Positions 22,191 to 38,333 are shown, numbered from the stretch's first letter. The stretch: DNA of 64,000 bases from an uncultured Alphaproteobacteria bacterium (GCA_963786425.1 CAWAZB010000001.1:672254-736253); one strand, 5' to 3'. The notes: a model not told the origin generated them from the sequence alone. Translations and numbers: made by a program.

Positions 22191-22499
22191 TCAGGCGTCG
22201 GCAGGCTTTGCGTCGCTATGGCCGAGAGTGCGGTCCGGTGCGATCTCGTCACGGACGAGCTGCTTCAGCTCCTTGATGTCGGGGAAGCGGCCCTTCTCCC
22301 GGCGCGACCATAGCAGCTTGCCATCGAGCCGCACCTCGAAGACGCCGCCGGTTGCATCCGGGACGAGCGTCATCGAGCCGAGCTCGTCGGCGAAGGTTGT
22401 CAGGAGCTCCTGCGCCATCCAAGAGGCGCGCAAGAGCCAGCCGCAGAGCCGGCAATAGACGATGCTGATATTGGGCGAGGCTGTGCCGCTCTGTTCCAT
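22191..22499 (-). CDS. SelT/SelW/SelH (Rdx) family protein
   Basis: IVYCRLCGWLLRASWMAQELL..GGVFEV..GRFPDIKELKQLVRD; both Cys are TGC codons. Confidence 0.88.
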   Translation of the reverse strand: MEQSGTASPNISIVYCRLCGWLLRASWMAQELLTTFADELGSMTLVPDATGGVFEVRLDGKLLWSRREKGRFPDIKELKQLVRDEIAPDRTLGHSDAKPADA

Positions 22500-22534
22500 C
22501 GTCACCCTGATCCCGGCCAATGTAGGGAGCGGCG

Positions 22535-24024
22535 CTACTCTTCCGAAGTCTCGGCGGCGGAAGGGCCAGAAGCGCTTCTTCTTCTCGGCCGGCTGCGCAT
22601 CGGCTTCATCCACCCGGTCGTGAACGTCCTCGATCGTCGTACCGGCGGTCGCCTCCTCACCCCCAACGCCGCCCTCTCCTTCAGGAACGAGCGCGGGCGT
22701 CGCGGCGGAGATGGTGGGCTTCCTGGAAGGCAGCGGCGGCAGCGCTTCCGAGACCGGCGCCGGGGCCGGAGCGGCGGGCGCGGTGTTCGCCTCCGCATCT
22801 GTGGGCGCAAGCTGCGAAGGCGCTTGCTGCGCGGCGGCGGGTGCGGCTGGCTGCTGCGCCTTCGGCTTCGGCGCCAATTTCTCGGCGGTGATGCCGAACA
22901 AGCGCCAACGCCCCTGCTGGCCGCGCAAGAATTTGAGATCGAAATAGATGCGCTCGGGCTCGGTCGGGAAAAAGCCGCTGATGCGCAGCACCCCACGCTG
23001 ATTGATCTCGGGCTTGGCGATCAATTTCGGCTGCACTGTCATCGCCGGCGAAAGATCGACGCCGCGGTTGCGCAAATTGGCAAAGACCTGGAAGAGCTTT
23101 CCGGGCGGGTTGGCGTTCTGGAACGGGACCGACGAGACCCCCCGCAGGAACTGGTAATTGCCGGTCATATTGGAGCGGTGCAGCGCGAAGAGGCTTGACC
23201 GGATGAGGAGCAGGAGCACCTGATCCGGCGGCACCGCCGGCGCGCCGGTTTGAGCGGGCTGCAGTCCCGGATCCCCCCATTGCGCGATCAGCTGCGGCAG
23301 CACCGGCTGGATCTGCGGCGCCATTGGTTGCGCCTGGGGCGGCGGCGCAGGAGCCTCAGCCATTTGCTCCGGCGGTGGCGGAGCGGGGGCCGCCGGCCCG
23401 GTTGCTTGCGGCGGTGGAGGGCTCGATTCTAGCGCGGGAGCCGGCTCGACAGCAGGCGCCTCCTGCTCCGGGGGCTGCATGCCAATGCCGATCGTCGCCG
23501 TCTCGGGCACCATCATGGGCTCCGGCTGCTGTGCCGGCTGCGGCTGGGGCTCGGGCTGAGCGGCCACGGCCTGATCTGCATGACCGGACGGCGCGAAGCC
23601 ATAGCGCGGCGTGACCCGTGGCCCGGTGTGCCGCTCTTCGGGCTCTTCGGCGGCTTGCACCGGCTCGCTCGCATCATCCGCAGCGAAGAGGTCCGGGTGC
23701 TTTTCGAGGAGAAGCACGTAAAGGAGCAGCGAGGTCGAAACGAGCGCCACCACCGCCGGGACCAGCATGAGGCCGATGATCCAGCGGTTCGGTCCCCGCT
23801 TGCGGGGCGGCGCCCCTCGCGAAAGGGAGGGCGGCATGGCAGCTAGGGGGCAGCTCCAAGGTGATCGCCGGAGGCTCGGGCTGAGCCTCGGCGGCGGCCA
23901 CGGCGACAGGCGTAGGATAGCGCCCAACCAGCCGCACCGGCGCTGCCTCTTGCATCTGCGCGGCACGCTGCTCGCGGCGGCGTTTCAGCTCGTCGCGAAA
24001 ATTCGCTGGATTTTCATCGCTCAC
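22535..24024 (-). CDS. Membrane-anchored Pro/Ala/Gln-rich protein with a central globular domain (two apparent frameshifts, ~23845 and ~22550)
   Basis: N-terminus in ORF 23674-24039, TM segment WIIGLMLVPAVVALVSTSLLLYVLL, domain LIRSSLFALHRSNMTGNY...GRWRLFGI; likely stop TAG at 22535 in the adjacent frame. Confidence 0.6.
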
Positions 24025-24040
24025 AGGCGTGTTTAACACA

Positions 24041-24073
24041 AAAGCCGACCCGGGGCGACCCCGGGCCGGCTTT
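24041..24073 (-). terminator. Hairpin/terminator after adhesin 1
   Basis: AAAGCCG.CCCGGGG-CGA-CCCCGGG.CGGCTTT inverted repeat just after the stop codon. Confidence 0.7.
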
Positions 24074-24094
24074 GTGGTTTAAGCGTTTAGGCGT

Positions 24095-27000
24095 CTAGCG
24101 ATACGCTGCGGGCGCGTTGCCCCAAGTCCATTGCGCGCCGACCCGGCCGCCCCAGACATCGTCACCCTGGCCTTCCTCGAAGCCGACGCCGAAGCCGCCG
24201 CCGAGAGAGATGCGGTCGCCTGGCTTCAGGACATCGCGGCCGAGTACGCCGGCGAAGGTCCAGCTCAGCGCGCTTGCACCTTCGAAGTTGCCGTAGTTCG
24301 CCCGCATACCGAACCGCTCATTGCCGATCAGGTCCGGATCCTCCATCGACATTGCGAGGGCGATGCCGGATTCGGCTTCGTCGAGGCGCTTGAAGATCTC
24401 GCCGCCATCCGTGGCGAGGTGTCCTCCGGCGTCGGAGGTCACGACCTCCAATGGGCCGGTCTGCCGCGAGCGGCTGAGGCCGGAAGTAATGCCCCGCGCC
24501 GTGTAGGTATGGTCGCCGGTGCCGAGCACGAACTCATTCTCGCGGTCGGAGAAGGCGCCCTCGCCATCGGCATTCGTACCGATCGCCACCGAGCCTGAAG
24601 CCGTGGCTGAGGTGTTGGCACCGACTGCCAAGGCGTTCGGGCTTGTTGCGTAAGAGGAGTAGCCAACGGCCGTATTGTTGGTGCCGATGGCTTGGGCGTA
24701 ACCGCCGACCGCCGTATTGCCGTTGCCGCCGAACGCATCGGAACCATTGCCGAGAGCGTTATTGTTGTATCCCGGTCCGGCGTAGGAATGGGCACCGAAG
24801 GCCGAGGCATGTCTGCCGGAGGCGTAGGACAAATAGCCGTTCGCCGTCGCATGGTATCCGCTCGCCTTGGAGAAGGTGCCGGTCGCGCTGGATCCAGCTC
24901 CGGTCGCCGCTGCATAGGCACCGGAAGCAGTGCCCCGGTACCCAGAAGCCAGCGAATTGTAGCCGCTCGCGGAGGACTGGTAGCCGCTGGCAAGGGCATA
25001 GACGCCGCTTGCCGTGGAACCTTGGCCGCTCGCGACCGCACCGGCAGCAAAGGCCGCCGAATTGGTGCCGGTTGCCTTGGCCTCGTCGCCGATGGCCGTG
25101 CTCTGGGTTCCGCTGGCCGTGGCTTCTTCACCGATGGCGACCGCGCTTTCGCCGCTGGCGAGAGCCTCGTCGCCGATGGCGACGCTGTCCTCACCGGAGG
25201 CCGTGCTGCCGCTGCCGGCCGCGAAGGAACTCATCGCCCGTCGCGAGGTTGCCGGTACCGACTGCGGTAGCGCCGGCGCCCGTGGCTGCGTTGAGATTGC
25301 CAAGCGCCGTTGCACCGATTCCGGTGGCGGCGTTGAGCGTGCCCAACGTGGTTGAGCCGACGCCTGAGGCCAGGGACACGCTACCGACGGAGGTTGCGCC
25401 TGCCGCGGTGGCGAAGGTCAGCGTGCCAAGCGCCGTGCTGCCGAGCCCGGTCGATTGCGCACCAAGACCAAAGGCTGAGCTGCCGAGCCCGGTGGCATCG
25501 GAGGCGGAGCCGACTGCCGTCGAGCCGAGGCCCGAGGCGGTGGTGGTATCACCGATGGCGACGCTGCTCGTGCCGGAGGCGGTGCTGCCTTGACCAATAG
25601 CAGTGGCATCTTCCGCCGAGGCAGTGTTGTTGTTGCCGACGGTGATTCCGTTTTCGTCGGACACGGTATTGCCGTTGCCGAGAACCGCCGCGTTTTCGCC
25701 CTCGACGGAGTTGTCGTTACCGACGACGTTCGAGTTCGCTGCGCTGACCGCCGTGGCCACCGTGTTGCCGCTACCGAGGATGTTGACGTTGTCGCCATCC
25801 CCAATGCCGACGGGCGAGTTCACGATGTTGTTGTTACCGTGGATGGAGGCATTGCCGGCATTCACGACGTTGGCAATGCCGGTGACGGTGGTGCTGCCCG
25901 GATTTGCCGAAACAGCAGCGCTTGAGTCGACGACGTTGTCATTGCCGACGACGAAGGTGTCGTCGCCGACGATCACATTTGGATCGCCGAAGGCGAAGCT
26001 GCCGTCGCCTGTCACAGTATTGTCCGTGCCGAACGCGCCGCTGTTGTTTCCGGTCACGCTATTGTTGGAACCGACAACTGTGGTATCGGCGCCGTCTGCG
26101 GTGTTACCGGCGCCGACTGCAGTCGAGTTGTCACCCTTAGCGGCGTTTTTGGAACCGAAGGCGCTCGAATTGTTGCCCGAAGCAGTATTTTGGGTGCCGA
26201 CCGCCGTCGAATAGTCGCCATAGGCCTTGTTGAAGGATCCGAGCGCCGTCGATTGCTTGCCGTCGGCGATATTGCCGGAGCCGACCGCCGAGGCATTGAT
26301 GTCGGAGGCCTTATTGAAAGCGCCGAGAGCCGTGGCGCCATCCGCAGTCGCCTGCGACGAAAAGCCAAAGGCGGAGCTAAACAGGCTGTTGGCCTTCGAG
26401 AGGGCGCCCACCGCCGTCGATCCGGCTCCCGACGCGCTGCTCTTATAGCCGCCGGCAAAGCTGATCCCGCCGGTTGCCGCCGAGTAAGCGCCGACCGCGG
26501 CATCGCCCTTATTTGTCGCGGAACTCTTATAACCGCCGGCGAAGCTCTGGGCCCCGCTGGCCGAAGAAAGTGCCCCAACCGCAGTCGCGACCTTGTCCGT
26601 CGCACTGCTTCCCGCGCCGAGCGCGGTCGCCCCGCCCTTCGTGGCGTTTGCTCCATAGCCGCCGGCGAAGCTGAAGGCGCCGTCAGCATTGGAGGTGCCG
26701 CCGATCGCGGTGGAGCCCTTGCCGTCAGAGGAAGATGCGATACCGACTGCGGTGCTGTTCACGCCAGCGGTGGCCGTATTGGCCAAGTAGCCGATACTAG
26801 TCGCTCCAGCGACAGCCGCAATCGGACCAGAAAAGGCGCCAACCGACGTCGACTGGGCACCGAGCGAATAAGATGCGGTGCCGATCGCAGTGCTGCCTGC
26901 GCCCTTAGCTTGAGAGTTGTTGCCGAACGCAGACGCATTGATCGCAGTGTTCGCAATCGCCTTGTCACCGACGGCGGTGTTGCCGTATTTGGCCTTGGCG

Positions 27001-28016
27001 CCGGCGCCGATGGCGACCGAGTCATAGGCGACCGCGCCTGTGCCGATGGCGGTGCCGTTCACTCCCTTGGACGCTGCGCCAGTACCGATGGCGATGCCGT
27101 TCGTTGCATCCTTCTGAGTAAAGGCCCCGTCCCCGATGGCAATGCTGCTCGCGCCCTTTGCGCTCGCCCCATACCCGTTGGCGATGCTATTCGCTCCCTT
27201 GGCATATGCGCCGGTCCCGAATGCTTGCGCGTTCTTACCAGTCGCCTTCGAATTGACCCCCTGCGCGATGGCAGAGTAGCCGGACGAGTAAGCGTTGTTG
27301 CCGACGGCGATGCTCCCAGTGTTGGTCGCCTGGGCAGGCGACGCCACACCACCCCCGATGGCGACAGAGAAGTCACCGCTCGCTTTGGTGTTGGCGCCAA
27401 CAGCGGTGGCCGCCGTGCCGCTGGCTGTCGAGAAGCCGCCGAGTGCCGTTGCCCAATCTTCCGACGCCGTAGAGCTGGCGCCACCTGCGAAGGATTTGTT
27501 GCCGGAGGCGTAGGCCTTGGTGCCGACAGCGGTGGCGTTCTTGTCTGTCGCTTTGGCGTAATTGCCGATCGCCGTTGCATCTTTGGCGGTAGCGTAAGTA
27601 TTGCTGCCGAGTGCCGAAGCGCCCGCGCCGGTGGCTGTCGCCTGGTCACCGAAGGCGGAAGCAGCGGTAGCAGCCGTGCCGCCGCCGACGGCTTTGGCGC
27701 CGAAGCCCACAGCACTCGCGTAATCTTTTGCATAGGCGTACGGGCCGCAGGCGAAAGAGTTCCCACTCGCATATTGCGTTAAAGTCGCGCCGACTGGCTG
27801 GAGCAGCCCGCAGATCTCTGCATTTGCCGGTTGCGGGGCGGCGGTCATGCCAACAGTTAAGGCGACCGCGCCAGCGCCGATGGCGGTCGCTGCCGCCCCG
27901 AGCGCCCTCTTTTTCTGCTTCGGAGGTCGCGCCGCGAAGGCGCTCCCAAGCCCGGCCGCGATGGCAACCGTGCTATAGCTCGTCGAATTGAGCAGTCCCT
28001 GACGCGTCTTCCGCAT
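24095..28016 (-). CDS. Trimeric autotransporter adhesin 1 (YadA-like head repeats plus anchor), one apparent frameshift at ~25230
   Basis: Many 14-residue xAIG/AVG head repeats, GxxN repeats, neck EFVLGT..YT, anchor GIALAMSM...GGRVGAQWTW; frames 25191-28016 and 24095-25315 join at ...ATGD/SSFAAG. Confidence 0.9.
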
Positions 28017-28393
28017 GGCAATCCCCCTAACGCCCCCAATGGCATTATCCTGAACATGGATTACGCCTCGGCCAAAGTGGACGCAAGGCGAGAATATGGC
28101 CCGTTAGGCGATTGTTCATCACTGTTGCGCGGGGGACACGCAAGGCTTGCATCAGAGGCACCGGGATACCGGCCGGAAGCCTTGATTTTGCTGGAGTTCG
28201 CTTCCTCCGTGCACGGCCTTGCGATGCCTCGGCAACGGGTTCCGAAGGCCTCATTGAGGTGACAAAAATGTGTCTCGAATTGGGACGTGAGGGCCTGGGG
28301 AGCAAGACTGCCTAACCCTATCTCGAGGGGCTTTTGAGGATCGCGCGACTCGGTTTGGACCGGTCAAGCCGGGCAATGCCGACGAGGGGCCGC

Positions 28394-29917
28394 CTAAAGC
28401 ATGCCGAGGCGGCGCCAGATGGGAACATGCTTCTCCAGAATTGGGCGCATGCGCTCGGTCAGCGTCGCGAGCGCCGCGTCATCGTCGTGCACCGCCTCCC
28501 CGTCCTTCACCACCACGCGGCCGAGTGCCTTGACCCTCGACAGGGCGTCGGCGGAGATCTTCTCGAGCTCCGTCGTGCCCTCCATCACGCAGGCGACGGC
28601 AAGCAAGCCGAGCTCGCCGACGCCGAGGCCTGTTCGCGCCAAGGGCGAGGCAAGCGTGTTGTACATGCGGCCGGCGCGCGCCTGCTCCACGACCATGCGG
28701 TTGAAGCGCTTGGCCGGCTCGGTGTCCGGCTCCGGCGGCAACAGCGCCACCGCCTGGCCGGAGTGGACGAGAAGACCAAGACATTCGAGCAAAATGCTGA
28801 GCTTTCCGTCAAAGGCATCGAGCACCGCCAGTTCGTCGAAGGGGACGATGCGGTCCGCCAGCGCGTCGGCGATGGGGGCATAGAGGTCTTCCCGGCCTTG
28901 CAGCTGCTGTAAGGGGCCGGCAAAGGTGAAAACGACGTTTTCGCGCGGCACGGCGAGCGTAAATTTCAATTGCGAAAGCAGACGCCGATGCTCGGCGCTG
29001 GTGAGCGCCGGCGTTCCGCGCGCGAAATAATCGCGCCGGAAGCGACGATTGCCGCACATGTCGCGAACGGCTTCGCGCAGGCGGAAATTCTGCATCTCGG
29101 CAATAAGCGGACGAAGATCGGCCGGGATCGTATAGACGTCGAGATTCTCGGGAAGCGCCGCGGAGGCAACGAAGGAGAGTTTCGCCGCGCCGAGCCGGTC
29201 GACCATCTCGGAGAATTGGAACAGCTGCCAATGCTCGTCGAGATATTCATGGGCCATGTAGACCCGGTCCATCTTCGCCATCGCCTCGACATGCTGTGCC
29301 GCGGCGGGATTGCCGAGGAAGAAGGCCGCCTTCCCCTCCTTCAGCTTGGTGACGAGGTTGAGGGCGAGGTCGATCTGGCGCGAGGAGTGGCCGGGATTTT
29401 GGCGCTTTACCTCCACCATGAACTGGCGGATCGGCGCGAGCGGGGCCCAGCCCGGCATGCAATTATAGGAGATATAGACGAAGCCGTTCGGCTTCAGCCG
29501 CTGGCGGAGGATTTGCACGATCGCATCCTGCGATTCCGGAGAGATCCAGGCGAAGATGCCGTGCAGCGCGATGACGTCGAAATCGTTGTCGCCGCCTTTC
29601 GCCGCGAGCTCCTCGAAGCTCATCTCCGCCACCTTGATGTTCTCAAGGCCGGCATCGGCAATCAGACGCCGCGCATTGGCGACATGCTCGGGGTTGAAAT
29701 CGATGCCTTCGAATTGAGTGTCGCGATTTGCGGCGGCGAGCAGAGCGAGACCGAAGCCCTGGCCGAAGCCAAGCTCAAGATAGCGGGCGGGCTTGAAGGC
29801 TTCACCCGGGGAGCGGCCGAGCATCAGGGCGATAAAGGCCATGTGGCTCGCCGCCGTCTCCCGGTAAAAGCCGGCGGTATAGGCAATGTCGGCGACGTAG
29901 CCGCCCGTCCAGTTCAT
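28394..29917 (-). CDS. SAM-dependent methyltransferase with methyltransferase-regulatory domain (rickettsial PKMT-like)
   Basis: YLELGFGQG, FDVIALHGIFAW, NGFVYISYNCMPGW, YMAHEYL, NRRFRRD motifs. Confidence 0.85.
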   Translation of the reverse strand: MNWTGGYVADIAYTAGFYRETAASHMAFIALMLGRSPGEAFKPARYLELGFGQGFGLALLAAANRDTQFEGIDFNPEHVANARRLIADAGLENIKVAEMSFEELAAKGGDNDFDVIALHGIFAWISPESQDAIVQILRQRLKPNGFVYISYNCMPGWAPLAPIRQFMVEVKRQNPGHSSRQIDLALNLVTKLKEGKAAFFLGNPAAAQHVEAMAKMDRVYMAHEYLDEHWQLFQFSEMVDRLGAAKLSFVASAALPENLDVYTIPADLRPLIAEMQNFRLREAVRDMCGNRRFRRDYFARGTPALTSAEHRRLLSQLKFTLAVPRENVVFTFAGPLQQLQGREDLYAPIADALADRIVPFDELAVLDAFDGKLSILLECLGLLVHSGQAVALLPPEPDTEPAKRFNRMVVEQARAGRMYNTLASPLARTGLGVGELGLLAVACVMEGTTELEKISADALSRVKALGRVVVKDGEAVHDDDAALATLTERMRPILEKHVPIWRRLGML

Positions 29918-29940
29918 TCCCCCCTCCCCTGAAACGCTCT

Positions 29941-30041
29941 GTCATTCCGGCGAATCCCGGAATCCAGTCATCGCAACCAATTCGACCCGGCCGTAACCGC
30001 GCCGCTTCGTATTACTGGACCCCGGCTTTCGCCGGGGTGAC
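29941..30041. repeat. Alphaproteobacterial REP-like palindrome (GTCATTCCGGCGAA...TTCGCCGGGGTGAC)
   Basis: Terminal inverted repeat with internal ATCCAGT/ACTGGAC pairing, between ialB and the methyltransferase. Confidence 0.75.
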
Positions 30042-30047
30042 TACTGA

Positions 30048-30851
30048 CTATTGCGCCGGAGCGGCCGGCGGCGCGGCTTGCGGAGCCGGCTGCTGCGCCC
30101 GGCGCTGGTCGGCTTCCTGCACGGCCTGGTTGATCTGCTGCTGGCGGCGCCGCTGAATGGCGGCGATGACCTGCTGACGCGACGCCTGATATTGCTGAAT
30201 ATTGGTCGATGCGCCGGCGAGCGTCGTCGCAAAACCGCCAAGCGGGAGCGAGAACTTGACCGGCCGCTTATTGGCGCCGACCGCCTCGATGGCGATTTCC
30301 TTGCCCGACTTCATCTGGTCGAGCGTGCCGGCGGGCAGTTTCACTTCCGCCGTGCAGCCGATCTGCAGGCAACTCATGTAGTCGAGCTTAATCGGCTTGC
30401 CGTTGTCGATCTTGGCGACCACCCCGCCCCGCAAATCGAGGCCGAGGGGAACGATCACGGTGAGAAAGTCTCCATCCGTGCCCTCCTGCTGACGCACCGA
30501 TCCGGAGAAGACGAGGCCGCCATCGGTGTTATTCACGCGCTCCTGCAAGGTCACGCAGAGATTGACCTCCTTGGTGGCGGCCTGGTCGGGCGGCGTACCC
30601 GCCGCGGGTGGATTAGCCGCGACGGTGATCTTGTCGCATAATTTCGTCCAGGGCGATTTCGGCTGCTGCGCTTGTTGGGCTTGTTGCGCAGGCTGAGCCG
30701 CTGCGGGTGGCTGCTGTGCCTGCTGCTGCTGGCGGCCGCGCACCTGCTGGGCCTCGGCTATGGCTGACACGGCCAAAAAGCCGGCGGCAAAAATGCCAAG
30801 GAAACGGACTGAATGAAGGACGGAACCAGACTTTATCTGCATGTTGCTCAT
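30048..30851 (-). CDS. Invasion-associated locus B (IalB) family protein
   Basis: Signal peptide, Gln-rich linker, SPWTKLC, VPLGLDLRGG, YMSCLQIGCTAEV, FSLPLGGF. Confidence 0.85.
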   Translation of the reverse strand: MSNMQIKSGSVLHSVRFLGIFAAGFLAVSAIAEAQQVRGRQQQQAQQPPAAAQPAQQAQQAQQPKSPWTKLCDKITVAANPPAAGTPPDQAATKEVNLCVTLQERVNNTDGGLVFSGSVRQQEGTDGDFLTVIVPLGLDLRGGVVAKIDNGKPIKLDYMSCLQIGCTAEVKLPAGTLDQMKSGKEIAIEAVGANKRPVKFSLPLGGFATTLAGASTNIQQYQASRQQVIAAIQRRRQQQINQAVQEADQRRAQQPAPQAAPPAAPAQ

Positions 30852-31041
30852 GACCCGTGAAACGCTAGCGGCAAGAACGCCGACTGAATAACGACCCCGA
30901 TGTTTGGCGAAGCAACACCGAAATGCGCCGAATTCGTGGTGGATTGCAAGCCTCAAATTCGGCCCCGCATGGCGCAGTTGACAAGCTCAATAGGGCACAA
31001 CTAATTGCCCTCCTGGACTAGGGGGAGCGGGGTCGCCGCAA

Positions 31042-31875
31042 ATGCAAAACGGCATTCACTTTATATCCGGGTTGCCGCGATCCGGTTCGACGCTGCTTGC
31101 CGGCATCCTCCGCCAGAACCCGAAATTTCACGCCGGCATGTCCTCGCCGGTCGGTTCGCTCGTCAATCAATTGCTCGCCGGCATGGGCGCCAACGCCGAA
31201 TTTTCCGTCTTCATCGACGAGGAGCAACGCCGCGACGTGCTGCGCGGCCTCTTCGACGGCTATTACCGCAAGATCCACACCGAGCAGTTGGTCTTCGACA
31301 CCAATCGCGCTTGGTGCAGCCGCATGTCGGCGCTGAGCACGCTGTTTCCCGAAGCGCGAGTAATTGCCTGCGTGCGCGACCCGATCCGCATCGTCGATTC
31401 CTTCGAGCGCTTGGTCCGCAAGAACTCGCTGCTCATCTCGCGCATGTTTCCCGGCGACGCCAACGCCACGGTTTTTACGCGCGTCGACCACCTCACCTCG
31501 AAACTCGGCACCGTCGGCTTTGCCTGGAACGCGCTGCAAGAGGCCTTCTACGGCGACCAGGCCGATCGCCTCATCGTTGTCGACTATGAGGCCCTGGCGC
31601 GGGAGCCGGAAGAAACGATGCGGAAAATCTACGAGTTTCTCAGCCTCCCCTACTTCAAGCACGATTTCGACAATGTGAGCTATGAGGGCGGCGGCGAGTT
31701 CGATCACTGGCTCGGGGTGCCGGGCCTGCATGCGATCGGGCAGAAGGTGCGTTTTCAGGAGCGGAAGCCGGTCCTTCCGCCGGAGATCGTGCGCCGTTTC
31801 GCCAATCAGCGCTTCTGGCGCGAAAAGGGCGTCTCCAAGGCGAAGGTTCTGCTCCCGGAAGCGGAATTCGTCTAG
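31042..31875 (+). CDS. Sulfotransferase, RaxST-like (putative protein tyrosine sulfotransferase)
   Basis: HFISGLPRSGSTLLA (5'-PSB loop), VFDTNRAWCSR, CVRD..IVDSFERL, AFYGD.ADRL, PGLH, VLPP. Confidence 0.88.
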   Translation: MQNGIHFISGLPRSGSTLLAGILRQNPKFHAGMSSPVGSLVNQLLAGMGANAEFSVFIDEEQRRDVLRGLFDGYYRKIHTEQLVFDTNRAWCSRMSALSTLFPEARVIACVRDPIRIVDSFERLVRKNSLLISRMFPGDANATVFTRVDHLTSKLGTVGFAWNALQEAFYGDQADRLIVVDYEALAREPEETMRKIYEFLSLPYFKHDFDNVSYEGGGEFDHWLGVPGLHAIGQKVRFQERKPVLPPEIVRRFANQRFWREKGVSKAKVLLPEAEFV

Positions 31876-32370: not shown

Positions 32371-32499
32371 TTTTCCCCGAATATCGGAGCGGGGGGTGAA
32401 AACTGGCTCGCCGCGGCTTGACAGGAACATCGCCTACTGGCTTGGGGTATGGAACGCAATTAGCCCTCTTTCGCCGTGAATTGGCTTGCGGGAGGTTCT

Positions 32500-32901
32500 G
32501 TGAACGCTGCCGAGGCAGAGTCGCTGCTGGAAGAAAACGGCAGGCCCACTGTGCTCGTCGTCGAGGATGAAGTTCTTGTTCGGTTGTTGATTGCCGACGA
32601 ACTTCGCTTCGCGAATTTTGTGGTGGTGGAAGCCATCAGTGCCGACGAAGCTTTGAGCGTACTGCGCTCTTCCCCGCATATCGACGTTCTCCTCACCGAT
32701 GTGCGCATGCCCGGATCAATGGACGGCATCGAACTCGCGAAAATGGTCGCGGAGACCTGGCCGGAGATCAAGATCGTCCTCACCTCGGGCCATTACACGC
32801 CATCGTCGGGCCTTTCGCTCGGCTATGAGTTCATCGCCAAGCCCTATGATCCCATCAAGTTGGTCGAGAGGATCGAGCAGCTCTTGGCGGAAGACAAATG
32901 A
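32500..32901 (+). CDS. Single-domain response regulator
   Basis: VLVVEDE, VLLTDVRMPG, IVLTSG, FIAKPY; GGAGG RBS before GTG 32500. Confidence 0.92.
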   Translation: MNAAEAESLLEENGRPTVLVVEDEVLVRLLIADELRFANFVVVEAISADEALSVLRSSPHIDVLLTDVRMPGSMDGIELAKMVAETWPEIKIVLTSGHYTPSSGLSLGYEFIAKPYDPIKLVERIEQLLAEDK

Positions 32902-33308
32902 GCAGCGTTCCTGCCTCGCAGGTGGACACGATTCTCGTTGTCGATGGAGACGTCCTCATCCGCATGTTCATCGCAGGATTCTTGCGCGATTGCGGCTTCA
33001 AGGTCATCGAAGCTGCGAATGCGGATGAAGCGCTGAAGATTCTGCAACAGGCCGAGGCACAAATCGACCTCGTCTTTACCGATGTCGACATACCGGGCGA
33101 GATGGACGGGTTCGGATTGTCGCGATGGATCCGGCAGACCCTGCCTGGCGTGGAGGTCATGCTTTCAGGCAGCCCCGCACGGGCGGCGCACGCGGTTGCC
33201 GGCCTTTGCAATTCCGCCTCGGTGGTCAGCAAGCCCTACGATCCGAACGCGGTGCTCGATGAGATCAGGCGCCTGCTCGCAACGCGTGGTCCCCGTCCGA
33301 GCCTTTAG
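32898..33308 (+). CDS. Single-domain response regulator
   Basis: ILVVDGD, LVFTDVDIPG, VMLSG, VSKPY; ATGA overlap with the previous gene. Confidence 0.9.
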   Translation: MSSVPASQVDTILVVDGDVLIRMFIAGFLRDCGFKVIEAANADEALKILQQAEAQIDLVFTDVDIPGEMDGFGLSRWIRQTLPGVEVMLSGSPARAAHAVAGLCNSASVVSKPYDPNAVLDEIRRLLATRGPRPSL

Positions 33309-34564
33309 GAAAGCTCCATCGACCATAGCCGGCGCTCAGCCGGGATGCCGCGCAGCCGGTAAAAGCCGAGATCGGAGAGCCTCGGCGAGGCGAGCGCGGC
33401 GCGGGCGCGCTTCGCCGCCTCATCCGAAACGACCACCGGGCGCCTGAGCGACTTTGCCATATCGGCAGTGCGCGCGACTTCATTTACGGCCCGCCCGAGC
33501 ACGCCGAATTTCAGCCGCTCCGCCGTACCGGCATTGCCGAACACCACATCGCCGAAATGGACGCCGATGCCGAACTCGATCCTCTCGGCACCATTTCCCG
33601 GCCGCTCCGAGCGAAGCGCTTCGAGACGCGACCGAGCGCTGGCCGCGGCTTGCAGCGCCGCGACGCAAGCCGCTGTCTCGCTTCGCTCCACTGGGAAGAA
33701 GGCGAGAATCGCATCGCCGATGATGTCGAGCACCTGACCGCCCCGCTTCATCACGGCGCCGGCGGCGCAGTCGAAATAGGTGTTGAGGAGCTCGAGGAAC
33801 TCGTCGACGGGAAGCGCATCGGCAAGGCCGGTCGAGTTCCTGAGATCGCTATACCAGAGCGCCGCCGAAAGCCGCTCCCCTTCCCCGCGCTTGATGGTGC
33901 CGGCGAGGATGCGGCCGCCGACCAAGGGGCCATGGAAGGTGTTAAGGGCATTCCGAGTGATCTGATCCTTGATGGACAGGCGGAACACGAGCGCGAGCGG
34001 AGCAAGGATATTGCGCATCGCCGCGACGTCGGATTCGGAGAAACCATCCGGCGAGCGCGTCGCCCAGGAGGTGGCCACTCGATCATAGGATTTTCGCTGC
34101 TGCGTCGCCCCGCCAAAGGCGACGATCAAAGCGAGATACTCGCAAAAGCCCCGCTTTTTTAGATGCGAGAGCAGAGGGAAGCGCGTCGCTTCCGCGTCTT
34201 GGTCGAGCCGCAGACGCCATGTAGGGAGGTTGTCCTTCAGCATGACATTCATCGGTGCCCAGTCGCCGACCGAGGCGAGCGAGAAGGGGCTCAAGCGATG
34301 ATCCGAACTCTCGACCAGGGTGGCGTAGCTCATCTCGGCGCCGGTCTCGCGCGTCCAGGTGATGCTCATGCCGTCGAAGAGCGGATGCAGAATGCGGAAG
34401 CCGACATTCATGCGGTCGATGGGAACGCCTGATTCCGTGAGCTGGCGCATGGCGTTTTCGATCAGCTCCGTGAGGGGAGCGTCCTGAATAGCCGCTTCTA
34501 TAATGGCGGCGGGGATGTCGAGAGTTTCGGGACGAGCCCGGGCGGAACGCGTCCGCGGGATCAA
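33305..34564 (-). CDS. Class III adenylate/guanylate cyclase
   Basis: LWYSDLRNST, IIGDAILAFF, FGIGVHFG, FGVLGRAVNEVAR. Confidence 0.9.
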   Translation of the reverse strand: MIPRTRSARARPETLDIPAAIIEAAIQDAPLTELIENAMRQLTESGVPIDRMNVGFRILHPLFDGMSITWTRETGAEMSYATLVESSDHRLSPFSLASVGDWAPMNVMLKDNLPTWRLRLDQDAEATRFPLLSHLKKRGFCEYLALIVAFGGATQQRKSYDRVATSWATRSPDGFSESDVAAMRNILAPLALVFRLSIKDQITRNALNTFHGPLVGGRILAGTIKRGEGERLSAALWYSDLRNSTGLADALPVDEFLELLNTYFDCAAGAVMKRGGQVLDIIGDAILAFFPVERSETAACVAALQAAASARSRLEALRSERPGNGAERIEFGIGVHFGDVVFGNAGTAERLKFGVLGRAVNEVARTADMAKSLRRPVVVSDEAAKRARAALASPRLSDLGFYRLRGIPAERRLWSMELS

Positions 34565-34702
34565 TGTCGCCAGTACTTAACTCAACGAGACTGACATCAG
34601 GCCTGCATACTAAGCAGGCTCTGCGCTAAGCCCAAGGGGCTTTACGCAATTGTCGTAAAGTTCCGCCGGGATCTGCCCATAGCGAGATCGACGGCAAATC
34701 GA

Positions 34703-35588
34703 TCAGAGCCCTGCCGATCGAAGGAACTCGAGCACCCGCTTCTCATATTGAGCCGGGTCTTTGCGGTAGAAATCCTGATGAGCCGCATCTTCGACGATCC
34801 AGAGGGATTTCGGGTCATTCGCCCGCGCAAAGAGCGCGCGACTGTTTTCTACGGAGGTTCGCTGGTCCTTCGCACCCGCAATAAAAAAGATCGGCACGCG
34901 AATGGTGCCGAGGTGCTCGATCGGCGACAGCTTGGAAGCGGGAATGCCGAGCCGCAGGTACAATTGATAGGAAAAGAGCGGGGTCAGGTATTTTCCGAGC
35001 GGGCCAAAGCGCAATCTGCAGGCGATTGGCGATCGCCGCTTCGATGCTGGAATAGACCGCTTCTACGACGATGGCATCGGCACCCGCGCCATCGGCAAGG
35101 AGGGCGGCCGCCCCTCCGAGCGAGAGCCCGATGATGCCGACGCGGGCAACCTTCTTCGTCTCGCGCAAAAACGTGACCGCCGCCTCGACGTCGCGCGCTT
35201 CGAGAAAGCCGAAGCTGATGTAATCGCCTTCGCTCTCGCCATGCGCCTGCATGTCGAACAGCAGAACGCTGTAACCTTCCTTGCGCAGGAATTTCGCGCG
35301 CTCGATGAGGCTTGTTCTGTTGCTGCGGATGCCGTGCAGGAGAACGATGCCGGCGTCGCGCGTGCCCCGCATAAACCAGCCTTTCAGCGTGGCGCCCGAC
35401 TTCGACGGAAAGGAAACGGTCTCATAGCCCGCATCGAAGTCAGGCTGTGGGATCGCTTGCCGTGCCGGCTTTATCAGCTCGCTGCCGACGAAATAGAGCA
35501 CCCAGGCAACTGCCCCGGCGAGAACGGCGCAAAGCACGACTGCGAAGGCGAGACGTCGTTTCACTTCGGGGATGAGGCGGCTTTTCAC
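34703..35588 (-). CDS. Alpha/beta hydrolase with N-terminal TM, one apparent frameshift at ~35010
   Basis: LLHGIRSNR, FDMQAHGES, GLSLGG nucleophile elbow; continues as RFGPLGKY...AGAKDQRT...DAAHQDF in the other frame. Confidence 0.85.
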
Positions 35589-35642: not shown

Positions 35643-38333
35643 CTACCAGCCGAAGGTCATGCCAGCGCGGCCAGCCACCTCGCCCTCTTCGGTGCCGGCG
35701 CCGAAGCCGCCATCGACCACGAGCGAGCCGAAGCCCGGCCGCAGCAGATTGGTGGCGAGCACGCCTGCCAGCGTGACGCTGACGGCATTCGCGTCGTCAT
35801 AGGTGCCCCAGCCGGCGCGCAGGGCGACGGTTTGGCCGGGAAGCAGAACCGGCTGCGCCATCGACGAGACGGCTGCGATGCCTTCCGTGAGCTGCCGATC
35901 CCGATTCTGCAAATTGCTGAGTTGGGATTGTATGCCGGCGATTTCTCCCGTGGTGGCAATTCCGAGTTCCGTCGGCGTATAGGCGGCGAGATCGCCATTC
36001 GCGTTCGATGTCACGAGAAAGTCTGGAGAGCCTTGCGCATTTCTGCTTGCGGCCGAGGTGACGCCCGACAGGGTGTAAGTGGAGGATTTGGTGCCGACCA
36101 TCACTTGATCGGCGCGCGTCGTCGCGGCGCCTGCTCCGATCGCCGTCGAATTGGTGTGACCTGCCGCTACCACCGCTCCGGCGCCGAAGGCGCTGCCATT
36201 GTCCGCCGCGACAGTGGCGCCTTGCCCGACGGCGGTGTCGCCGGGGCCGCCGGCATAGGAACCGGCACCGACAGCGACCGAGCCGTTCCGCGCCTCCGCA
36301 AAGGTGCCGAGCGCGGTGCTGTAACCGCCAAAGGCATAGGCACGGCTGCCGACAGCCGCGTTGCCTTTTCCGCCATACGCCTTTGATTTACTGCCGAGAG
36401 CGGCGTTGTAATAACCGGCGCCGGCATAGGCATAGGCGCCAAAGGCAGACCCACGCTCTCCTCCGGCGCTGGAATTATAGCCGCTGGCAGTTGATTGATA
36501 CCCGCTCGCCAACGAATTGGCGCCTATCGCCGACGCACCGGTGGCTGAAGCTTTCGAAGCCCGGCCGAGTGCCGTTGCATCGGCACCACTCGCTGCAGAA
36601 TTTTCGCCGAAGGCCGACGACCCAACGCCGCTTGCATAGGCGTAATAACCGGTCGACGTGGCGGCGAGAGCGGTCGCCTTGGAACTCGCGCCGACGGACG
36701 TGGAATAGGCGCCGGTCGCCTCCGAGCCCGTGCCGAAGGCAGACGAATGCTTGCCGAGCGCCGAGGCGTGGTCGCCGACCACTGTCGCGTATTCCGCGAC
36801 ATTCGCGAGAGCATCGGCCCCAATGGCCGTGTTGAGGAATTTGGAATTGGAGCCTGCGCCGATCGCAATGGCACTATCGGCAATGGCTCCATCGCCGATG
36901 GCAATGGCATCCAGGCTCAGCGCCTTCGCTTCTTTGCCGATAGCGACTGAATTATGCGACCCCGTATAGGCCCCGTCACCGATCGCGACGCTGCTCGTGC
37001 CGAGCGCCTTGCTCTTATAGCCGCCCGCAAAGCTCTTTTCGCCGGACGCTGCGCTCTCGAAGCCGAAGGCGCTTGAATTCACCCCCGCGGCATCGCTTCC
37101 AGCGCCGACCGCGGTTGCTCCGTCCCCTCCTGCGGTGCTCACATAGCCTGCAGCGAAGCTGAAGACACCTTTCGCCGAGGTATAGGCGCCGATCGCCGCA
37201 GAGCCTTTGCCGACAGAATTAGCGTCGAAGCCGATCGCCGTGCTGTTGACGCCAGCCGAGTTTGAATTTGCGAAAGTGCCGATGCTCGTTACGCCGGCGG
37301 TTGCGGCGATGGGCCCCGACTGGAAGCCGACTGACGTTGAGTTCTTGCCGAGTGCGAAGGCCTCATCGCCGATTGCCGTGCTGTTATCGCCGGTGGCTTT
37401 GGATCCGTTGCCAAAGGCCGACGAATCTTCGGCGACATTCGCCAGCGCGCCGTCGCCGACGGCGGTATTGCCGTATTTGGCCTTGGCGCCGGCACCGATG
37501 GCGACCGAGTCGTAGGCGATCGCGCCCGTGCCGATGGCCGTGCCGTTAATGCCCAATGATTTGGCGCCGGTGCCGACCGCGATGCCATTCGTCGCGGCCG
37601 TAGCGGTGTAGGCGCCGTCGCCGATGGCCACGCTGCTCATGCCAAGAGCGTTGCCCTTATATCCGCCCGCGAAGCTCTTAGCGCCGGACGCCGTCGTGCT
37701 GAAGCCGAAGGCACTCGAACCTGCGCCCGAAGCGGTGTTACTACTGCCGACCGCCGACGAATAATCGCCATTGGCTTGGTTAAAGAAACCGATCGCCGTG
37801 GATTGCTTGCCGTCGGCCACGTTGCTGGAACCGACCGCCGTGGCGTTCGTATCGGAGGCCTGGTTGAAGGTACCGAGCGCGGTCGCGCCATCGGCGCTAG
37901 CCGCGGATAAGAAGCCCAAAGCCGACGTGAACAGTGCGGTGGCTTTGGAATTAGCGCCGACTGCCGTCGACCCGGCGCCTGAGGCGAGGCTCTTGTAGCC
38001 ACCAGCGACGCTGACGCCGCCGCTCGCGACGGCACCCGCTCCGCAGGCAGTCGACGTGGCGAGCGGCGCGTTGCCCTGCGCCGGCTGCGCGATAACGTTG
38101 GGCGCGACGAAGGTGCCGCAGACGGCGCCCTGCGCATAGGCGGATGTGCCTGGCACGGCGACAACCGTCAGGGCGGTAGCCGCAATTCCGAGTGTCACAC
38201 CAATGGCTGCTTGCGCGGCTCGCCTCGATGATCTCATCGGCGGACGCGACTTAAACGCGGTTCCGAGGTCAGCCGCGACCGCGACGGTGCTGTAGCTCGC
38301 AGAGTTGAGCAGTCCCTGACGCGTTTTGCGCAT
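35643..38333 (-). CDS. Trimeric autotransporter adhesin 2 (YadA-like), intact
   Basis: Head repeats, neck QVMVGT..YT, coiled coil, anchor ending GRAGMTFGW; leader nearly identical to adhesin 1. Confidence 0.92.
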   Translation of the reverse strand: MRKTRQGLLNSASYSTVAVAADLGTAFKSRPPMRSSRRAAQAAIGVTLGIAATALTVVAVPGTSAYAQGAVCGTFVAPNVIAQPAQGNAPLATSTACGAGAVASGGVSVAGGYKSLASGAGSTAVGANSKATALFTSALGFLSAASADGATALGTFNQASDTNATAVGSSNVADGKQSTAIGFFNQANGDYSSAVGSSNTASGAGSSAFGFSTTASGAKSFAGGYKGNALGMSSVAIGDGAYTATAATNGIAVGTGAKSLGINGTAIGTGAIAYDSVAIGAGAKAKYGNTAVGDGALANVAEDSSAFGNGSKATGDNSTAIGDEAFALGKNSTSVGFQSGPIAATAGVTSIGTFANSNSAGVNSTAIGFDANSVGKGSAAIGAYTSAKGVFSFAAGYVSTAGGDGATAVGAGSDAAGVNSSAFGFESAASGEKSFAGGYKSKALGTSSVAIGDGAYTGSHNSVAIGKEAKALSLDAIAIGDGAIADSAIAIGAGSNSKFLNTAIGADALANVAEYATVVGDHASALGKHSSAFGTGSEATGAYSTSVGASSKATALAATSTGYYAYASGVGSSAFGENSAASGADATALGRASKASATGASAIGANSLASGYQSTASGYNSSAGGERGSAFGAYAYAGAGYYNAALGSKSKAYGGKGNAAVGSRAYAFGGYSTALGTFAEARNGSVAVGAGSYAGGPGDTAVGQGATVAADNGSAFGAGAVVAAGHTNSTAIGAGAATTRADQVMVGTKSSTYTLSGVTSAASRNAQGSPDFLVTSNANGDLAAYTPTELGIATTGEIAGIQSQLSNLQNRDRQLTEGIAAVSSMAQPVLLPGQTVALRAGWGTYDDANAVSVTLAGVLATNLLRPGFGSLVVDGGFGAGTEEGEVAGRAGMTFGW

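Follow-up and report, generated by a model that had tools for sequence, protein, structure and literature searches.

What would a lysine methyltransferase and a sulfotransferase be doing beside a trimeric autotransporter adhesin (TAA)? The question is raised by a 64,000-nt stretch of DNA, here called the window, from an uncultured Alphaproteobacteria bacterium (GCA_963786425.1 CAWAZB010000001.1:672254-736253). The genes concerned lie at positions 22,535 to 31,875 and encode a methyltransferase (MT), a sulfotransferase (ST) that uses 3'-phosphoadenosine 5'-phosphosulfate (PAPS), an IalB-family exported protein, a trimeric autotransporter (TAA1) and a Pro-rich protein. The best explanation is that the host is a Hyphomicrobiales-type soil bacterium and that the locus is a trimeric-autotransporter adhesin module. 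It is an evenly balanced question whether this module carries two cytoplasmic tailoring enzymes, the MT methylating the TAA and the ST sulfating an exported protein of the module. Gene content, homology, a predicted fold and a gene linkage that is both conserved and recurrent are the observations on which this answer is built.

An earlier note on this DNA had proposed such a system. ORF (open reading frame) calls and Pfam matches located all five of its genes, and the order that it had described holds: ST is divergent from ialB, and ialB, MT, TAA1 and the Pro-rich gene are all on the minus strand. The features are as follows.

31042..31875, plus strand: ST, a PAPS-type sulfotransferase, RaxST/TPST-like, 277 aa (Pfam Sulfotransfer_3, E = 2.8e-22)
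30843..31041, no strand: divergent intergenic spacer between ialB and ST, about 200 bp
30048..30842, minus strand: IalB-family exported protein (PF06776, E = 4.9e-22)
28394..29917, minus strand: MT, a protein lysine methyltransferase (PKMT)-like enzyme, 507 aa, cytoplasmic (Methyltransf_25/31 and PF10119)
24095..28016, minus strand: TAA1, a trimeric autotransporter adhesin (YadA_head, E = 2.8e-58 and 3.7e-24 on two pieces)
22535..23837, minus strand: Pro-rich TAA partner protein, membrane-anchored, with an NTF2-like domain (no Pfam family)

In the proposed mechanism, the core of the module would be a TAA with a dedicated NTF2-like periplasmic partner anchored in the inner membrane, usually together with an IalB-family exported protein, and in the lineage of the window this module would have gained two cytoplasmic tailoring enzymes. 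The MT would use S-adenosylmethionine (SAM, AdoMet) to methylate, ahead of Sec export, the side chains of lysines in the passenger of TAA1 and perhaps also of the second autotransporter TAA2 described below, a step modelled on Acinetobacter KmtA and AtaA and on rickettsial PKMT1/2 and OmpB. The ST would use PAPS to sulfate an exported protein of the module, the TAA being the most likely acceptor and IalB the alternative.

The methyltransferase and its neighbours

The MT is a PKMT homologue, as the earlier note had recognised. Its best relatives in the PDB are Rickettsia PKMT2 (5doo, E = 3e-25) and PKMT1 (5dnk, E = 5e-21). It has a class I SAM-dependent methyltransferase domain (Methyltransf_25/31/12 matches), and after the Rossmann fold a PF10119 dimerisation ('regulatory') domain at residues 217-300 (E = 6.6e-22). 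The Asp and His that contact AdoMet (D102/H146 in RpPKMT1) are kept, GvD and cHG of PKMT2 aligning to GID and LHG of the MT. The match to the PKMTs spans only residues 11-297 of the 507, and the winged-helix domain PF21782, the Rickettsia-type middle/C-terminal part, was not detected in the window MT at a cutoff of E <= 0.01. The MT is therefore not of the Rickettsia subtype.

The earlier note had suggested a survey of gene neighbourhoods, which was run for both enzymes. For the MT it covered 65 homologue loci. A gene was called adhesin-like if its product was 700 aa or longer and 53% or more of the residues were Gly, Ala, Thr, Ser, Asn or Asp, and near if it was within two genes. Adhesin-like genes were 20 of the 228 genes near MT homologues and 1 of the 597 farther off (Fisher p = 6e-11; related loci are not independent here or in the ST survey, and far genes may be clipped by locus ends). 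The 20 genes are spread over 19 of the 65 loci, and 19 of them are co-oriented with MT. Among other examples, the MT homologue lies beside a classical autotransporter in Bradyrhizobium diazoefficiens (L006), beside DUF4347/cadherin-like giants in Xanthobacteraceae metagenome-assembled genomes (MAGs; L007-L009, L045), beside a Kelch/cadherin protein in L010 and RTX and FG-GAP proteins in L004, and with RTX/DUF4214 proteins and SapC in six Methylobacterium loci. Among the 65 loci the exact arrangement of the window, MT followed by TAA and partner, recurs only in L058, and an ST adjoins the MT only in L004 (ST, then MT, then RTX).

A second line of evidence comes from the close relatives of the window. 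At L155 and L238 the MT belongs to another subfamily, which is 25% identical to the window MT, carries PF21782 and matches PKMT1 (5dnk) with E = 9e-81 over residues 10-486. Because members of two PKMT subfamilies stand beside orthologous TAAs, PKMT genes were recruited at least twice to the same TAA. Pairs of TAA and partner flanked by PKMT genes are also found in L199, L213, L223 and L235. The TAAs that have an adjacent MT contain 36 Lys (TAA1) and 13 Lys (L155), and those that lack one contain 6 (L152) and 5 (L153), a small sample with the direction that is expected.

There is also an experimental precedent. In Acinetobacter sp. Tol 5, more than 130 lysines of the TAA AtaA are methylated by the PKMT-like enzyme KmtA, and without KmtA both the display of AtaA and adhesion increase (Inoue, Yoshimoto and Hori, J Bacteriol 2024, PMC11784438). 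Outer-membrane PKMT genes are described there as widespread and falling into two clusters, with TAAs in 19% of the carrier genomes. The idea that such an MT acts on a TAA has thus been established experimentally since 2024. Homology, the KmtA precedent, the strong co-oriented linkage and the double recruitment together suggest that the MT probably methylates lysines of the TAA.

The loci of the MT survey have some further regularities. Upstream of the pair formed by MT and the giant DUF4347 gene (L007-L010, L045), the Xanthobacteraceae MAGs have a conserved set of three tandem phage-tail-collar genes (PF07484), each of about 185 aa, and a DUF6916 gene. In Methylobacterium, SapC comes after the MT instead.

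The sulfotransferase and its linkage to IalB and the adhesin

In the ST, strand 1 and the PAPS loop (HFISGLPRSGST) stand at the very N-terminus and there is no signal peptide, so that the enzyme is cytoplasmic. Its closest solved sequences are TPST1 (E = 2e-6) and TPST2. An AlphaFold2 (AF2) model made from 35 homologues has a pLDDT (predicted local distance difference test) of 92, and the Foldseek matches at ranks 1-13 are all TPST1, TPST2 or tick TPST (E = 6e-10 to 6e-8, TM (template modelling) score about 0.55 only). CurM/OLS, Stf9 and heparan 3-O-sulfotransferases (3-OSTs) follow at lower ranks. The family named in the earlier note is borne out, as the nearest solved sequences and folds are those of tyrosylprotein sulfotransferases. 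The PAPS motifs, which are the 5'-phosphosulfate-binding (5'-PSB) GLPRSGST at residues 10-17 with R13 and the 3'-phosphate-binding (3'-PB) R112 and S120, are invariant in the 35 homologues and align to those of TPST1; E122, H207/D208, H230 and D86 are invariant as well, and are candidates for the catalytic base. The family has 7254 matches at E <= 1e-10, all labelled 'sulfotransferase' only.

Twelve contigs make up the window's own clade (the window, L149-L156 and L237-L239), in which the ST relatives are 70-100% identical. IalB adjoins ST in all 12, and an orthologous TAA is within two genes in 11, all but L151. The TAA orthologues in these contigs are 42-53% identical over the C-terminal 400 aa, and the gene after the TAA is that of the Pro-rich partner in every contig long enough to show it, L152 excepted. 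The genes occur in three orders.

partner<-TAA<-IalB<->ST: L153, L154, L237, L239 (L152 has the same order without the partner)
partner<-TAA<->MT->ST<-IalB: L155, L156, L238
partner<-TAA<-MT<-IalB<->ST: window, L149

L150 has a further arrangement, with TAA, an IalB fragment, ST and a full IalB. The genes around the locus differ among the window, L150, L152 and the L153 group, which gives at least four flanking contexts. The divergent IalB/ST pair with a spacer of about 200-350 bp is found in L151, L152, L153, L237 and L239.

The IalB domain of the window protein scores 78.9 bits against PF06776 (cutoff 22.1). A signal peptide, visible in the translation as a hydrophobic leader ending AEAQQ, is followed by a Gln-rich region and then the IalB domain, and a helical/Gln-Pro tail makes up the C-terminus. 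The IalB proteins linked to ST form one orthologous subfamily with a conserved C-terminal helix that contains a Tyr in the alignment.

For more distant relatives of the ST, 76 loci (47-59% identity) were surveyed with the same adhesin-like rule. Adhesin-like genes were 20 of 266 genes near the ST homologues and 7 of 511 far from them (Fisher p = 3e-5), and 19 loci are involved. ESPR/PATR autotransporters stand beside ST in Dyella (L120, L126, L128, L145), DUF4347 giants in L083 and L124, and cadherin/RTX giants in Acetobacteraceae (L091, L099, L100). A gap of about 35-350 bp separates ST from a co-oriented giant gene downstream in L083, L098, L120, L124, L126, L128 and L145, and in L089 a giant gene ends 44 bp upstream of ST. 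C39-ABC (ATP-binding cassette)/HlyD type I secretion genes adjoin ST in four loci, resembling raxSTAB. Besides the window, MT and ST are less than about 5 kb apart in two unrelated loci, L004 and L091. The survey therefore bears out the co-occurrence on which the earlier note had depended: MT and ST homologues are each enriched beside adhesin-like giants, and ST, IalB and TAA are together in 11 of the 12 own-clade contigs.

Several ST loci have features of their own. Massilia sp. Bi118 (L124:10001-20800) has two successive pairs of ST and giant DUF4347/Big_13 gene in tandem, as if an enzyme-substrate pair had been duplicated as a unit. In Mycolicibacterium sp. (L137:10001-20771) an ST homologue of 52% identity adjoins a 3300-aa Gly-rich ORF, 79% of whose residues are Gly, Ala, Thr, Ser, Asn or Asp and which has numerous GGxGxD-like motifs. 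This ORF may be PE_PGRS-like, the host being an actinobacterium without autotransporters. The adhesin-like neighbours have a median Asp+Glu content of 5.7% beside ST (L081-L145) and 10.1% beside MT (L004-L045), a comparison that RTX repeats may confound. A C39-peptidase ABC exporter, a HlyD-like gene and a double-glycine-leader peptide (MRELTDRELDAVCGG...) are present at L239:13304-17166 and L151:13455-17326, 3-6 kb from ST and beside a classical autotransporter. This set looks like a separate bacteriocin-type system; the peptide was considered as a RaxX-like substrate of the ST and rejected, its core having no Tyr.

The trimeric autotransporters

Two trimeric autotransporters are encoded in the window, the second lying 3.7 kb past ST.

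25191-28016 and 24095-25315, minus strand: overlapping ORFs that are the pieces of TAA1 in the window (941 and 406 aa)
35643..38333, minus strand: TAA2, a second and intact trimeric autotransporter, 896 aa from MRKTRQ (YadA_head, E = 8e-54)

TAA2 is a possible second substrate. The intact copy of TAA1, which is in the metagenome contig L149, matches YadA_head with E = 1.7e-72 and in 30 stretches, and TAA1 contains 36 Lys and 37 Tyr. The C-terminal four-strand YadA anchor PF03895 has a weak sub-threshold match in TAA2 (E = 0.053, 14 bits, model positions 5-60) and none in TAA1. The C-terminus of TAA1 aligns with those of TAA2 and the L152, L153 and L155 TAAs, showing a neck and alternating strands up to '...GRVGAQWTW'. 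An acidic-Tyr motif was not evident in translations and alignment of the TAAs or IalB.

Both ends of these proteins have extensions. TAA1 (27820-28016, minus strand), TAA2 (37950-38333, minus strand) and the L153 TAA have a common N-terminal extension of about 30 residues (MRKTRQGLLNS.SYSTVA...) before the signal peptide, and this leader is unlike the ESPR of the MNKIY type. At the other end, the TAAs of the window (24095-24130, minus strand), L153 and L155 continue for 8-20 residues beyond the final '...QWTW' barrel strand, with TWGH..VAYA.PPE.GPLK in L153 and L155 and TWGNAPAAYR in the window. Periplasmic C-terminal extensions are rare in Proteobacteria according to a TAA survey.

The NTF2-like partner protein

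The Pro-rich protein belongs to a family of about 1973 homologues, all named hypothetical and without a Pfam model. In the conserved architecture a transmembrane segment or signal peptide comes first, then a Pro/Gln-rich linker, a domain of about 125 aa and a Pro-rich tail with W-x-P-F (W-N-P-F) at its end. AF2 predicts the domain as an NTF2-like alpha+beta cone with a pLDDT of about 90, and the structural matches are generic NTF2 folds only.

Species genomes were searched with the family alignment, which gave 80 loci (L157-L236). In 66 of them, from Hyphomicrobiales and Sphingomonadales, a TAA ends directly upstream of the partner and is co-oriented with it. The genera include Bradyrhizobium, Methylobacterium, Ancylobacter, Hyphomicrobium, Mesorhizobium, Methylocystis, Devosia and Novosphingobium. 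A PKMT was found in 4 of the 80 loci and IalB, with a narrow hidden Markov model, also in 4; ST was found in none, and among the TAA-partner loci surveyed it is confined to the window's clade. By these counts the TAA-partner pair is the ancient core, and MT, IalB and ST are accessories.

The partner is a candidate TAA helper, the Hyphomicrobiales counterpart of TpgA of Acinetobacter and SadB of Salmonella. Like these small envelope proteins, it is encoded directly downstream of the TAA and co-oriented with it. It differs from TpgA and SadB in having an NTF2-like fold, Pro-rich linkers and a transmembrane anchor or signal peptide, and in lacking BamE-like, OmpA-like or lipoprotein features. It was not singled out as a candidate in a recent global survey of TAAs.

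Which explanation accounts for the gene cluster?

A number of observations weigh against an adhesin tailored by both enzymes. The whole case is one of gene association, and it is from this association that we infer action on the TAA, the residues that would be modified and the effect on adhesion or surface display. For the MT, adhesin-like neighbours occur in only 1-2 of 15 distant Rickettsia-type PKMT loci, and with so few loci that subfamily gives no independent replication outside Hyphomicrobiales. The surplus of Lys in MT-adjacent over ST-adjacent adhesins is marginal (p = 0.057). For the ST, the 12 contigs are one clade in which ancestry is largely common, and the tightest partner is IalB rather than the TAA, L151 having IalB and ST without a TAA. 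The lack of ST from all 80 TAA-partner loci of other species means that it is not a general module component. The adhesins adjacent to ST have no Tyr enrichment (p = 0.44), and the Tyr residues of the TAAs are mostly in G-Y-x-S/A contexts, without the acidic surroundings typical of TPST/RaxST sites. The segment after the 5'-PSB helix that holds the catalytic Glu of TPST, CGEETR, aligns to AGMSSP in the ST, where Ser takes the place of Glu and no acidic residue is present. Across Alpha-, Beta- and Gammaproteobacteria and Mycobacterium the ST family has a mean column identity of 57%, and conservation this strong is easier to reconcile with one common small acceptor than with a variety of protein substrates.

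The acceptor of the ST could be IalB or a non-protein molecule. If only the MT tailors the adhesin, ST and IalB would be a two-gene unit in which the ST sulfates IalB or shares its regulation. This would explain why IalB adjoins ST even where the TAA is missing and why the linked IalB proteins are a single subfamily with a conserved Tyr, and a preprint has reported that IalB is linked to TAAs in Hyphomicrobiales irrespective of any ST. That preprint judges the link possibly incidental and leaves methyltransferases and sulfotransferases unmentioned. However, an IalB gene was found in none of the 148 MT and ST loci of more distant relatives, and 19 of the 76 ST loci among these have adhesin-like giants, so that IalB cannot be the general acceptor of the ST family. 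The conserved Tyr of IalB also has no acidic neighbours, and a self-contained ST-IalB unit is considered unlikely. A similarly low probability is given to a cell-surface glycan, a lipid or a small metabolite as the acceptor, with the proximity to adhesins arising from shared residence in variable, horizontally transferred surface-structure islands. The very strong conservation of the ST across phyla including Mycobacterium and the loss of the TPST Glu are consistent with this idea, as are the polyketide, glycolipid and heparan sulfotransferases among the other structural neighbours. In addition, integrase, Rad52 and resolvase genes lie near several ST loci, and raxST homologues of about 40% identity, with substrates unknown, have been described from many phyla 'in diverse genetic contexts' with signs of lateral transfer (Ronald-lab preprint, 10.1101/149930). 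Yet no glycosyltransferase or lipid-synthesis gene is conserved beside ST, and adhesin-like genes are enriched 5.9-fold nearest ST compared with positions at least 3 genes away in the same loci. Many of the ST-adhesin pairs are co-oriented with short gaps, in one locus the pair is duplicated, and all the top structural matches are protein-tyrosine sulfotransferases.

It may also be asked whether the adjacency has any functional meaning at all. The MT might be a broad methylase of outer-membrane proteins or act on another substrate such as a ribosomal protein, and the cluster might have arisen by chance and been inherited in one clade. No operon that joins pkmt and ompB is described for Rickettsia, 46 of the 65 MT loci have no adhesin-like neighbour, and the scarcity of such neighbours among the distant Rickettsia-type loci also fits. 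The 57-fold enrichment near MT, the co-orientation of nearly all of the neighbours, the independent recruitment of two PKMT subfamilies to orthologous TAAs and the direct experimental precedent of KmtA and AtaA make this explanation very unlikely. Returning to the tailored adhesin module, the TPST-like fold, the RaxST precedent, the clustering that has persisted through rearrangements and the family-wide enrichment near adhesins leave the arguments for and against ST action on an exported module protein in about equal balance. That the TAA itself is the acceptor falls short of that level, although it deserves consideration.

Relation to known systems and significance

The MT is set beside KmtA by description, both cases having a PKMT-like methyltransferase and a trimeric autotransporter in one organism. 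In the portions of the KmtA article that were consulted no adjacency of kmtA and ataA is reported and no sulfotransferase is mentioned, whereas in the window MT and TAA have an operon-like arrangement. In Rickettsia, OmpB is methylated by PKMT1/2 and is thereby shielded from ubiquitin (PMC8232902). The N-terminal AdoMet and dimerisation domains are homologous, and the target in Rickettsia is likewise an autotransporter passenger with many lysines modified. The window MT differs in matching over the first ~300 residues only, with PF21782 undetected, whereas the L155/L238 relatives carry the true Rickettsia type at the same locus. As the organism appears to be free-living, the contigs coming from ENA/JGI metagenome assemblies, shielding from host ubiquitin is an unlikely role.

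RaxST of Xanthomonas oryzae sulfates the secreted peptide RaxX. The ST resembles it as a cytoplasmic PAPS-dependent enzyme of similar size, with its 5'-PSB Arg and 3'-PB Ser at the same spacing (R13 and S120, against Arg-11 and Ser-118 of RaxST), and RaxST acts on a protein that is then exported. The difference is in the surroundings. A RaxX/PSY-like precursor or a RaxA/RaxB peptidase-ABC exporter was not found among the annotated ORFs of the window, and the candidate substrates are very large adhesins or IalB. The animal TPST1/2 share the PAPS-binding motifs and are the best sequence and fold matches, but they are Golgi-lumenal while the ST is cytoplasmic, and the candidate Tyr sites here are not acidic. 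IalB of Bartonella shares PF06776, the signal peptide and a genomic tie to adhesion/invasion loci in Hyphomicrobiales; the window protein is longer, with Gln-rich and C-terminal helical extensions.

Literature searches on sulfotransferases or tyrosine sulfation with adhesins or autotransporters found nothing relevant. In the literature searched, the association of ST with adhesins, the ST-IalB pairing, the presence of both enzymes with a putative substrate and the NTF2-like TAA partner are undescribed. The novelty that the earlier note had claimed stands for the sulfotransferase and for the combination, but methylation of TAA lysines by a PKMT-like enzyme had already been published (PMC11784438). 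Bacterial protein tyrosine sulfation in the literature searched is essentially limited to RaxST of Xanthomonas, and multi-site lysine methylation of surface proteins is known for OmpB, flagellin and, since 2024, one TAA.

A wider proposal, which is put forward tentatively and as somewhat improbable, is that the RaxST/TPST-like family (>7000 homologues, E <= 1e-10) is a dedicated adhesin sulfotransferase that acts before export on giant surface proteins, namely type Va/Vc autotransporters and type I RTX, cadherin-like and DUF4347 adhesins. Together with the PKMT found here, one TAA would receive a dual coat of methyl and sulfate groups. If true, a role could be assigned to a large enzyme family of wide phylogenetic spread, and bacterial adhesion, biofilm behaviour and surface charge would gain a new layer of control. 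The dual coat would be the first instance of sulfation on a bacterial adhesin, and the first in which two modifications that alter charge are encoded together with the protein they act on. In the loci found, genes for a candidate enzyme and its candidate substrate are neighbours, in some cases in the cultured genera Dyella, Massilia, Methylobacterium, Bradyrhizobium and Methylocystis, which makes the proposal testable.

Gene integrity and further features of the window

How far can the gene calls of the window be trusted? The public metagenome contig L149 has an MT identical to that of the window and is 97-98% identical over 14.6 kb, and 49 indel events separate the two over this length, so the gene calls of the window have to be treated as error-prone. 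TAA1 is broken in the window by one extra T near 25229 (GAGTTCC, compared with GAGTCC in L149), and in L149 it is a single intact gene of 1325 aa. In the window the Pro-rich gene has lost its stop codon to a 1-nt indel near 22547. In L149 this gene terminates '...RRRDSEE*' ahead of Rdx, which is a separate gene there. L149 has frameshifts of its own, which affect ST and the middle part of the Pro-rich gene. Since an intact copy of every gene is present in one contig or the other, all are read as intact, and the indels are read as consensus errors or minor strain differences. Two other interpretations were rejected. TAA1 is not taken as a pseudogene, its L149 copy being intact and the L149 frameshifts falling in other genes, and a Pro-rich/Rdx fusion protein is discounted, as the read-through is due to the indel only. 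The families and positions in the earlier note thus stand, but its gene descriptions missed that TAA1 is split, that the Pro-rich gene reads into Rdx and that TAA2 lies beyond the region it covered. The ORFs at the downstream end are as follows.

22191-23966, minus strand: long ORF comprising the Pro-rich protein and an in-frame Rdx/SelW-like domain
22191-22499, minus strand: Rdx/SelW-like CxxC protein, 102 aa (Rdx, E = 5.4e-29)

A consensus scan for promoters and terminators across 22-32 kb gave nothing beyond shuffled expectation, and a sigma-70-like promoter was not found by consensus scan in the ialB/ST spacer. No cysQ or PAPS-synthesis gene is among the ten ORFs in the first 17 kb of the window. 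The stretch between ST and TAA2 (window 32476-35588) encodes a cyclase-like protein, an alpha/beta hydrolase and two response regulators of a single domain each. In L150, too, the regulator and the hydrolase lie close to ST (62% and 70% identity), and this recurrence suggests that they may regulate the adhesin genes.

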